Assembly (NCBI RefSeq): GCF_055900595.2 | Contig: NZ_CM148325.1 | Strand: one strand, 5' to 3' | Length of the DNA stretch: 64,000 nucleotides | In this document: positions 7,050 to 9,035 of the stretch, piece by piece | Position numbering within the stretch: the stretch's first letter is position 1 | How the letters are laid out: the number at the start of each line of letters is the position of its first letter | The notes under the pieces: generated by a model | Seen by the model: only the letters and a program-made list of their open reading frames with translations | Told to the model about the DNA's origin: nothing | Databases searched by the model: none | Position numbers and translations under genes: made by a program

Positions 7050-7757
7050 ATGGATTTGAATAAATTCGATGAGCCATTCAGCCCTGAAGATATCGAATGG
7101 CGAATACAGCAAAGCGGTAAAACACGCGATGGCAAAGTGTGGGCTATGGTGCTGGCTTATGTCACGAACCGGGCAATCATGAAACGCCTGGACGATGTTT
7201 GCGGCAAAGCAGGATGGCGCAATGAATACCGCGATATTCCCAACAACGGCGGAGTTGAATGCGGCATATCAATCAAGATTGATTCCGAATGGGTAACCAA
7301 ATGGGATGCCGCTGAAAACACGCAGGTAGAAGCCGTCAAAGGTGGTCGTTCCGGTGCAATGAAGCGCGCTGCCGTTCAGTGGGGAATCGGTCGGTATCTG
7401 TATAACCTTGAGGAAGGTTTTGCACAAACATCTCTCGATAAAAAGCAGGGATGGCACAGGGCAAAACTCAAGGATGGAACAGGATTTTACTGGCTCCCTC
7501 CATCGCTGCCGGGATGGGCAATCCCAGCATCAGATAACAAACCATCACCAGAAAATACCAACCAGAAATCTCCATCGGTTGACTGCGAACAAATCCTGAA
7601 AGACTTCAGCGATTATGCGTCAACAGAAACTGACAAGAAAAAACTCATCGAGCGTTATCAGCGTGACTGGCAATTAATGGCTGGCAACGAGGAGGCGCAG
7701 GCTAAATGCGTTCAGGTAATGAACATCAGAGTTAACGAACTAAAACAGGCGGCATAA
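7050..7757 (+). CDS. Single-strand annealing protein (Rad52/Sak-like)
   Basis: Motif KGGRSGAMKRAAVQWGIGRYLY typical of Rad52-type annealases; sits where lambda bet would be. Confidence 0.7.
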   Translation: MDLNKFDEPFSPEDIEWRIQQSGKTRDGKVWAMVLAYVTNRAIMKRLDDVCGKAGWRNEYRDIPNNGGVECGISIKIDSEWVTKWDAAENTQVEAVKGGRSGAMKRAAVQWGIGRYLYNLEEGFAQTSLDKKQGWHRAKLKDGTGFYWLPPSLPGWAIPASDNKPSPENTNQKSPSVDCEQILKDFSDYASTETDKKKLIERYQRDWQLMAGNEEAQAKCVQVMNIRVNELKQAA

Positions 7758-8225
7758 ATGTCTCACTTGGACGGAATTATTAAAAGATTCGAGTCCAGCT
7801 ACAAAGTTAATGAAACAACAGGTTGCTGGGAGTCTACCTATTCAAAAAACAAAGGAGGATACACAAAATTTGTAGCCTTTGGCGTAACAATGCTTTCTCA
7901 TCGGGTTGCTTTTGAGCTTTATCACTCCCCCATTCCATCTGGGAAGATGGTTTGCCACAAATGCGATAACCCATGCTGCGTTAATCCTGAACATCTCTTT
8001 TTAGGTAGCGCGCAAGAAAACATGGACGACAAGATAGCAAAAGGAAGGCATCGTGGAGCCAAGAAAGGTCATGCTCATCATGGTGCAAAATTAACAGAGT
8101 GGCAGGTTATAGAAATTAGGAAAAGACTCTCTGAAAAAGAGAGTCAGTACAAGATAGCAAAAGACATGGGTGTATCTCAATCAATTATAAGCAACATAAA
8201 AACTGGCAAGAGGTGGAGCAAATGA
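7758..8225 (+). CDS. HNH endonuclease with C-terminal HTH
   Basis: HRVAFELYH...[23 protein letters not shown] motif. Confidence 0.8.
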
Positions 8226-8728
8226 GTTCTCGCGGGATAAATAAGGTGATTATTCTTGGTCGGGTAGGACAAGACCCGGAAGTTCGATACTCACCATCAG
8301 GAACAGCGTTCGCTAACCTGACAATAGCCACGTCAGAACAATGGCGAGATAAAAATACTGGCGAGCAAAAGGAATTGACTGAATGGCATCGTGTTGCTGT
8401 ATCCGGGAAACTGGCTGAGGTCGTGGGGCAGTATGTGAAAAAAGGTGATCAGATTTATTTCGAGGGAATGCTGAGAACCAGAAAGTGGAAAGACCAGTCA
8501 GGGCAAGACCGTTACACAACCGAGGTTCATGTCGGAATTAATGGTGTGATGCAAATGCTTGGCGGCATTGGCGACAGCAAACAACAAGCATCCAGCAGGC
8601 AATCACAGAAGCCACAGCAGCAATCATCACCAGCACAACACAACGAACCTCCGATGGATTTTGACGACGATATACCCTTTGCACCAGTAACTCTCCCCTT
8701 CCCTCGTCACGCTATTCACGCAATTTAA
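8222..8728 (+). CDS. ssb: Single-stranded DNA-binding protein (phage SSB) with C-terminal extension
   Basis: OB-fold N-terminus, Gln/Pro-rich linker, DDDIPF motif followed by 15 extra residues. Confidence 0.9.
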
Positions 8729-8741
8729 TCAGGAGAAAATC

Positions 8742-9035
8742 ATGCCAGCGCCTCAGTATGGTGCGGATGACCCGCGCCGCTGTTCCGGCAATTCCGTATC
8801 GGAGGTGCTGGATAAATTCAGAAAAAACTACGACCTGATAATGTCGCTACCGCAGGAAACGAAAGAGGAAAAGGAATTTCGCCATTGTATATGGCTTGCA
8901 GAGAAAGAAGAACGCGAGCGAATTTACCAGACATCAATCCGACCATTCCGCAAAGCCACATATACCCACTTCCCTGAAATTGACCCGCGCCTGCGTAATT
9001 ACCGCTCACGCTATGGCGCTATCAGTAATGACTGA
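8742..9035 (+). CDS. Hypothetical protein
   Basis: 97-aa ORF with CAGGAG SD. Confidence 0.5.

Follow-up and report, generated by a model that had tools for sequence, protein, structure and literature searches.

The stretch of DNA analysed here (the window) comprises 64,000 nucleotides (nt) of contig NZ_CM148325.1 in RefSeq assembly GCF_055900595.2. The gene under study is ssb, which encodes a phage single-stranded DNA (ssDNA)-binding protein (SSB) with 15 residues, here called the tail, beyond the acidic tip at which canonical SSBs end. It is an intact phage SSB gene of the HK75-type lambdoid recombination module (annealing protein - SSB - Abc2), a module type defined in a 2025 survey of lambdoid phages (PMC12315714). 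A preliminary description made from the sequence alone had placed the open reading frame (ORF), the DDDIPF motif and the count of 15 residues correctly, and had offered either a lost stop codon or an altered interaction mode as the explanation. Escherichia coli strain EC332 carries a gene that is 100% identical to that of the window and is named ssb by the NCBI pipeline; the gene for HK75 gp31 shows an identity of 99% over nt 17-507 and of 97% across the whole gene.

The product of the window gene matches the Pfam SSB family PF00436 over residues 6-104 (E = 1.7e-36). In a profile search of the PDB its acidic tip was found to be the same as that of E. coli SSB (chains 1EQQ and 4MZ9), and no solved chain with the tail was returned by that search. 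Linker length and linker sequence differ between homologs. The protein lacks the canonical feature of a tip at the extreme C-terminus, as 15 codons lie beyond the Phe codon, and there is no stop codon in the sequence at the junction between this Phe codon and the Ala codon that follows. A frameshift leading to a canonical tip was considered and rejected when the junction was read by eye: the +1 frame yields ...IPLHQ*, the -1 frame has no nearby stop, and no product ending in DDDIPF-COOH results. The chance that a random frame remains open for 15 codons is about one half; the length of the read-through is therefore unremarkable in itself, and conservation of the extension is the deciding question. 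The coordinates are summarized in Table 1.

Table 1. Features of ssb and of its neighbours in the window (pN/pS: raw ratio of nonsynonymous to synonymous differences; pLDDT: predicted local distance difference test score)
Feature	Position	Strand	Remarks
ssb ORF, 168 codons	8222-8728	+	ATG at 8222; stop codon TAA at 8726-8728
SSB OB-fold domain, residues 1-112	8222..8557	+	Pfam PF00436; AlphaFold2; pN/pS 0.19
Gln/Pro/Ser-rich disordered linker, residues 113-142	8558..8647	+	pLDDT <50; pN/pS 0.56
Acidic SSB tip, residues 143-153, internal here	8648..8680	+	Phe codon 8678-8680; pN/pS 0.10
15-codon tail and stop codon	8681..8728	+	tail codons 8681-8725; pN/pS 0.41; predicted disordered
Insertion site of tip-targeting HNH genes, Phe/Ala codon border	8680..8681	+	empty in the window
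Rad52/Rad22-type single-strand annealing protein, start of module	7050..7757	+	Pfam PF04098, E = 5e-26; 98.7% identity to HK75 gp32
HNH_3 endonuclease gene at the ssb start codon, of a family other than the tip-targeting one	7758..8225	+	Pfam PF13392, E = 1.1e-13
abc2 anti-RecBCD gene, end of module	8742..9035	+	Pfam PF11043, E = 4.9e-64

The extended gene is annotated in phages HK75, mEp235 and mEpX2 (99% identity) as well as in epsilon34, g341c and NM-3 (89% identity), and a second SSB lineage with the extension is found in ECP1, CP-1639 and HZ41 (about 73% identity). Among 5,426 complete E. coli genomes, 407 yielded a match, and in 301 the match, tail included, spanned 80% of the gene or more. 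The alignment with related SSBs that the preliminary description had proposed was carried out: regarding the best 120 hits in a search of 5.8 billion proteins, the extension was exactly 15 residues long in about 105, from Klebsiella, Citrobacter, Enterobacter, Salmonella, Kluyvera, Pluralibacter, Phytobacter and uncultured phages. The tails of the best hits follow the pattern [AS]-P-[VIA]-[TG]-L-[PQ]-[FY]-[PSG]-[RK]-H-x-[IV]-[HY]-[AVL]-[IL], and in codon alignments the conserved residues are retained through synonymous changes (Pro CCA/CCG/CCT, Leu CTC/CTG/CTA/CTT, Arg CGT/CGC/CGG). Together with the raw pN/pS of the tail (computed, like the other values in Table 1, over nine divergent genes), this synonymous variation shows constraint on the tail as a peptide. 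In a large subfamily of SSBs from enterobacterial temperate phages, a gene with the 15-residue tail and without the endonuclease is the normal state. A lost stop codon is not supported, the extended form being the widespread, conserved and endonuclease-free allele, and neither is a sequencing artefact, since phages sequenced independently of one another, and about 300 E. coli genomes, carry the same extension. Against its own reading, the preliminary description had set the case that the extension is conserved in a known SSB subfamily whose partner binding is normal; only the first half of this, conservation within a subfamily, is borne out.

The reference to an endonuclease is explained by the close relatives of the window gene. 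The last 46 nt of the window ssb are 100% identical to the 3' end of another gene, encoding an HNH protein, in phages Sf6, IME10, N7 and Huey. In Huey, an HK75-like SSB ends at ...FDDEIPF and is followed by a 468-nt HNH gene (155 residues) that ends in the tail. Sf6 shows the same arrangement, with the HNH gene directly after the tip-ending ssb, and in two Salmonella prophages (L017 and L018) the HNH ORF that follows an ssb with a canonical tip keeps all 15 tail residues. The insert is placed exactly between the Phe and the Ala codons in each of these cases; HK75 carries the tail on its SSB, and Huey, with the same SSB, has the tail moved to the endonuclease. The canonical-looking alleles of close relatives thus arise by insertion of an HNH gene directly after the Phe codon, whereby the insertion provides the stop codon of ssb and the HNH ORF itself runs on into the tail. 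The last ~30 nt of the Huey ssb are recoded beside the insert (PPMNFDDEIPF) and differ from HK75, which is what co-conversion during homing would give.

Several comparisons indicate to which of the two genes the tail belongs. The closest HNH homologs elsewhere, in Yersinia phage vB_YenM_30.14 (62% identity) and Vibrio phage vB_VpP_1, also lie directly behind ssb but have no tail. The HNH proteins of Sf6 and Huey are only 48% identical, whereas their tails are nucleotide-identical and match the local ssb alleles. The Salmonella loci L017 and L018 differ by one base through ssb and the HNH gene; their divergence starts inside the tail (four synonymous changes), and past the stop codon they are unrelated. 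On these three grounds the tail is a property of the ssb locus, not of the endonuclease; as the native C-terminus of the HNH protein it is ruled out by the tail-less homologs and by the L017/L018 comparison. About 300 E. coli genomes have the tail on ssb, 98 complete E. coli genomes contain the Sf6-type HNH gene, and the full-length matches listed among the latter are left unannotated by the NCBI pipeline. (The GenBank record of Sf6 already remarks that gp26 shares 14 residues with "E. coli SSB".)

An alignment of five HNH members was used as query to scan viral contigs, and 573 relatives were returned. Among the best 80 of these, the HNH ORF was located 3-106 nt downstream of an ORF with an SSB-type tip in 75 cases. 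The upstream tips read ...DIPF, ...DLPF, ...DVPF, ...DAPF or ...DMPF, and the upstream proteins, from very different phages (L028-L107), include OB-fold SSBs as well as quite different proteins. HNH ORFs that end in the tail were found, among the same 80 loci, only in enterobacterial lambdoid-type phages. The HNH alignment contains an invariant block (HH-D-Y ... W-L-C ... H-x-E-W-H) and matches no Pfam family at E < 0.01. Presence and absence of the gene at one precise site, with near-identical flanks, is seen in Huey versus HK75, L017 versus L018 and L023 versus L026. From this position and this polymorphism we infer that Sf6 gp26 and its Huey relative form a homing-endonuclease family specialised on the tip-coding end of genes for ssDNA-binding proteins. 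Members of this family include the HNH genes at L001 2067-2546 and L004 2462-2929.

The L023/L026 pair comes from outside the lambdoid phages. An acidic tip like that of SSBs is present on a non-OB protein of PHROG 3284 in a chimallin-encoding jumbo phage, and one 90%-identity cluster of this protein holds both ...DFDQDIPF* and ...DIPF-APIGLQYGKMSLYALA* alleles, the latter with a 16-residue tail of the type APIGLQY... In the tailed locus (L023 6001-7283), an uncalled HNH gene of the same family (138 residues) lies right behind the tail and ends on the same TGA that follows the Phe codon in the tail-less locus (L026 3001-3765); the flanks of the two are about 97% identical. The endonuclease gene therefore stands after the tail in L023, as in L124, and before the tail in the lambdoid phages.

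Tails of this kind extend beyond the SSB subfamily. When 1.84 billion representative proteins were searched with a profile built from the last 30 residues, the two-part ending of tip and tail was also found on unrelated proteins, e.g., on a Pseudoalteromonas SSB and on proteins ending in ...APIGLQYGKMSLYALA, ...APVGLQYNNAWIHCV and ...APYGLQYPNLLLSC. Tail carriers fall into five PHROG families, namely 44 and 743 (both SSBs) and 3284, 4477 and 2544 (of unknown function); in each, the family profile ends at the tip. The wider class of extensions can be described by the consensus F-[AS]-P-[VI]-[GT]-L-[QP]-[YF]-x3-hydrophobic-x-small-hydrophobic-COOH. Its members stand behind DDDIPF-type tips in many unrelated ssDNA-binding proteins of phages, for the most part within recombination modules. 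Searched as a degenerate DNA pattern, DIPFAPxGLQY matched 39 viral contigs, in 37 of which no HNH gene was present within 1.3 kb downstream; the tail is thus stable without an endonuclease. The neighbours of these GLQY-type tail genes are enriched in recombination genes (RdgC 9, ERF 3, YqaJ 2, Rad52 1). Among 91 ORFs neighbouring tail genes, RdgC was encountered nine times and FtsK_gamma seven times, and in marine phages, among others, the gene downstream of that for the tail-bearing SSB often encodes an RdgC protein with a fused FtsK-gamma domain (L024 6594-7733; L108-L146).

Extensions are not confined to those of about 15 residues. Regarding the 106 genes with FDDDIPF in a real ORF among the matches listed from viral contigs, which are a non-random sample, 76 stop after the Phe codon, 21 have a tail of 14-16 residues and nine have shorter extensions, including APLHHLAGA. 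The tip is hence buried under a conserved extension in 30 of the 106, and extended tips are accordingly common in phages. A family of nine-residue tails (APLHHLAGA, APLPYLAGA, APHHHLNGA) accounts for 26 of 119 matches listed with an AP-biased pattern (L147-L261); other short extensions after DDDIPF in phage genes are APEWR, APAFGG and APYFDGQF.

In the window, the module belongs to the early-left operon of the prophage, and its order is annealing protein - HNH_3 endonuclease - ssb - abc2. The HNH_3 gene is missing from HK75, where the stop codon of the annealing-protein gene directly precedes the ATG of ssb. In the window, the ATG equivalent to that of HK75 ssb opens the HNH_3 gene, and ssb restarts 468 nt further on with its first six codons recoded beside the insertion (MSSRGINK as compared with MASRGVNK in HK75). 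With the HNH_3 gene at its start and the tip-site HNH gene in relatives, ssb appears to have insertion sites for mobile endonucleases at both ends. The tail is kept with varied upstream partners (Rad52-type or AAA_24/Sak4-type annealing proteins) and with varied downstream genes (abc2, an Rv2179c-like exonuclease gene or unknown genes). The view that the tail is merely a conserved upstream region of abc2 is ruled out, since epsilon34, L011, L014, L015 and L016 keep the tail with other genes downstream.

The slot right after the stop codon of the tail is variable. In several prophages of Salmonella, Phytobacter and Pluralibacter, an Rv2179c-like 3'-5' exonuclease gene separates the tail-bearing ssb from abc2 or from the gene in the equivalent position; such inserts are located at L003 3000-3548 (epsilon34 gp34), L011 4514-5065 and L015 3403-3951. 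The window itself holds a lambdoid prophage integrated beside ybhC, with genes for an N antiterminator, a LexA-family (cI-like) repressor, cII, a replication protein, a toprim-domain protein, NinB, xis and int. On the downstream side of the recombination module, the annotation gives several ead/Ea22 and DUF551 genes as truncated pseudogenes. In the ORF P0122 (120 residues), an Ead/Ea22-like N-terminus is joined to the last ~40 residues of a window-type SSB; this chimeric ORF probably arose by deletion in a related prophage.

The terminal Phe of an SSB and its carboxylate sit in a hydrophobic pocket with a basic rim on each SSB partner. The premise of the preliminary description that a free C-terminal Phe matters holds: addition of a single glycine to E. 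coli SSB renders binding of chi and DnaG undetectable, and the mutant complements poorly in vivo (PMC3045619, PMC3632105). As one added glycine already abolishes both interactions, docking of the canonical kind should be prevented by the 15-residue tail. In phage HK620, stimulation of the annealing protein Sak4 by the cognate SSB, the product of the adjacent gene, depends on the last six residues of that SSB (PMC5928155). Between the two explanations first offered, an altered interaction mode is the one favoured by the evidence collected from sequences.

We propose that, with the tail in place, the Phe of the tip would no longer offer the free alpha-carboxylate on which chi, DnaG and other host partners depend, so that the phage SSB would not be plugged canonically into the host network of SSB partners. 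Acidic tip, A-P turn, hydrophobic-x-aromatic element and hydrophobic C-terminus may together form a two-part linear motif. This motif might keep SSB-coated phage ssDNA out of reach of host nucleases, helicases and RecA loaders and reserve it for the phage's own annealing pathway, or it might recruit a different partner; insulation and redirection may also combine. The explanation as a whole, namely that the tail is the normal state of the ssb locus and that the two-part motif insulates or retargets the phage SSB, has in our estimate an even chance of being correct.

In an AlphaFold2 monomer prediction with an alignment of 63 sequences, the beta-barrel was modelled with a pLDDT of about 90 (residues 8-114), the linker (residues 113-142) fell below 50, and residues 117-168, tail included, were predicted to be disordered. 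Docking of the tail in cis on the OB fold was set aside, as the tail is disordered in this model of a single chain. A chimera of beta clamp, linker, annealing protein, linker and tail peptide was also modelled with AlphaFold2.

A number of observations weigh against the insulating or retargeting motif. In the chimera, the tail was not docked with confidence on the cognate annealing protein (pLDDT of the peptide <50), in a model in which the clamp also folded poorly (40-70). Sf6 and Huey, in which the tail has passed from the SSB to the endonuclease ORF, are viable phages, from which it follows that the tail is dispensable for growth. No other segment of the gene is as constrained as the acidic tip, internal though it is, and this is hard to reconcile with a tip that has simply been inactivated; such extreme conservation argues that something still reads it. 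At L023/L026, tail and HNH gene constitute a single indel between the Phe codon and the stop codon, so that the tail can move together with the endonuclease and may in part be its passenger. Finally, the lambdoid SSB-1 proteins were described as "not studied experimentally" in the 2025 survey, where the extension is unmentioned (PMC12315714).

The joint indel offers a mechanism for the spread of the tail among unrelated genes, and the endonuclease was evidently able, to judge from such loci, to bring the tail into a tail-less gene or to remove it. A possible but doubtful reading is that the internalised tip and the tail form a portable interaction module that would rewire phage ssDNA-binding proteins away from the host network of SSB partners, or would make them tight blockers of a host nuclease, helicase or RecA loader. 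The tail would then have spread between unrelated phage proteins because a homing endonuclease directed at the conserved tip-coding DNA drags the neighbouring tail-coding segment along.

Taken further, the same observations would make the tail a scar, i.e., the leftover 3' (or 5') end of an HNH cassette that was fused by deletion or co-converted and has no function for the SSB. The final 14-15 residues shared by the HNH ORFs of Sf6, Huey and Salmonella with the tail, the jumbo-phage indel, and the occurrence of tail-plus and tail-minus alleles within one 90%-identity protein cluster all speak for it, and it would account for the sharing of the tail by unrelated tip-bearing genes. We nevertheless regard it as unlikely: HNH homologs behind tail-less SSBs terminate without a tail, the tails of Sf6 and Huey are identical in nucleotide sequence beside HNH proteins that have diverged by about half, and L017 and L018 differ only from the tail onwards. 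Moreover, no HNH gene accompanies 37 of the 39 GLQY-type tails or the tail in about 300 of the ~400 tail-carrying E. coli genomes, the tail length is fixed, and its pN/pS lies below that of the linker.

Rather unlikely, too, is a turnover signal, in which the hydrophobic C-terminus would be a portable degron for an AAA+ protease (ClpXP in a MuA-like manner, Lon or FtsH) and would keep a potentially toxic SSB low in lysogens. The tail is always at the extreme C-terminus, is predicted to be disordered and is portable between unrelated proteins, and its endings (..HAIHAI, ..IYAL, ..LYALA, ..LLNCM) presumably resemble those of MuA (..RRKKAI) and of the ssrA tag (..YALAA). However, conservation is highest in the first half of the tail (P-x-x-L-x-[FY]) and not at its final residues, and a degron would have no evident reason for always abutting an SSB tip.

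A tether to the sliding clamp is improbable. Here P-[VI]-[TG]-L-[PQ]-[FY] would mimic the hexapeptide beta-clamp motif and link SSB-coated ssDNA to the clamp. The hydrophobic residues stand at motif positions 2, 4 and 6 of a disordered terminal peptide, for which we take QLSLPL of Hda and QTSMAF of epsilon to be the appropriate comparison. Against this, the near-universal Gln at position 1 is replaced by a Pro that is invariant in all tails, the conserved residues past the hexapeptide are left unexplained, and the tail also occurs in a nucleus-forming jumbo phage. The AlphaFold2 chimera, in which no docking was seen but the clamp part was itself poorly folded, carries no weight here.

Very improbable is a pro-peptide, i.e., removal of the tail by a protease that cuts after Phe and exposes the DDDIPF-COOH tip at the right time. 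The strongest purifying selection does fall on the tip, and the junction is nearly always F-[AS]-P; but we know of no cytoplasmic protease of such specificity, Pro at P2' disfavours many proteases, and cleavage would make the conserved motif of the tail itself needless. As for an artefact or recent accident, in which meaningless downstream sequence would be read as coding owing to a sequencing error or the loss of a stop codon, the expected terminal position of a canonical tip and the ease with which 15 codons stay open by chance are its only attractions, and recurrence of the extension in independent phage sequences and some 300 complete E. coli genomes, at the same length in most homologs across genera and with conserved residues kept via synonymous changes, leaves it next to no credibility.

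The sequences concerned are already public, and the evolutionary anatomy of the locus described here is well supported. A literature search, with many subscription papers outside its reach, revealed no description of the conserved tail, of its wider distribution or of a tip-targeting endonuclease; in the papers it covered, the junction sequence is not spelled out and an endonuclease at the 3' end of ssb is not described. Both the link to a homing endonuclease and the occurrence of the same type of tail on unrelated phage proteins go beyond the preliminary description.

The free C-terminal Phe of SSB is regarded as the universal handle through which ssDNA is located by over a dozen proteins of genome maintenance. 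A class of proteins with a buried tip would, if true, be a natural experiment on this hub, and tailed SSBs may reveal how phages shield recombination intermediates from host enzymes, or may point to a new partner. There is also relevance to recombineering, where the match between SSB tip and annealing protein limits portability between hosts. An HNH family specialised on the last codons of tip genes would be a clean new example of a selfish gene that exploits a conserved protein motif.

By fold, tip and gene position, the window protein belongs to the OB-fold SSB family and to the lambdoid SSB-1 group. With E. coli SSB and canonical phage and plasmid SSBs (PF00436) it shares the OB fold, a disordered Gln/Pro-rich linker and an identical acidic tip; in these, however, the tip is terminal with a free Phe carboxylate, whereas in the window protein it is internal, with 15 residues beyond. 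The lambdoid SSB-1 proteins (Sf6 gp27, ES18 gp48, HK75 gp31; PMC12315714) are products of the same gene, located between those for the annealing protein and Abc2. HK75 gp31 also bears the tail, whereas those of Sf6 and ES18 stop at the tip because an endonuclease gene comes next. The HK620 SSB-2/Sak4 pair (PMC5928155) is similar in that a phage SSB gene adjoins an annealing-protein gene, and provides a precedent for phage-specific use of an SSB tail; HK620 SSB-2 is not homologous to the window SSB, however, and has a free NDYPPF end without extension. The E. coli SSB+Gly mutant (PMC3045619, PMC3632105) likewise has a C-terminal Phe that is no longer terminal, but its extension is artificial, one residue long and causes loss of function, whereas the tail of the window protein is natural, conserved and 15 residues long, with a motif of its own. 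Regarding the endonuclease, free-standing HNH homing endonucleases such as T4 mobE (PMC2790892) resemble the Sf6 gp26/Huey family in one precise site of presence or absence with near-identical flanks, in a recoded flank beside the insertion and in a highly conserved coding target. The Sf6 gp26/Huey family of putative homing endonucleases differs from T4 mobE in targeting the last codons of genes for tip-bearing ssDNA-binding proteins, and the lambdoid HNH ORF differs further in borrowing the last 15 codons of its host gene.

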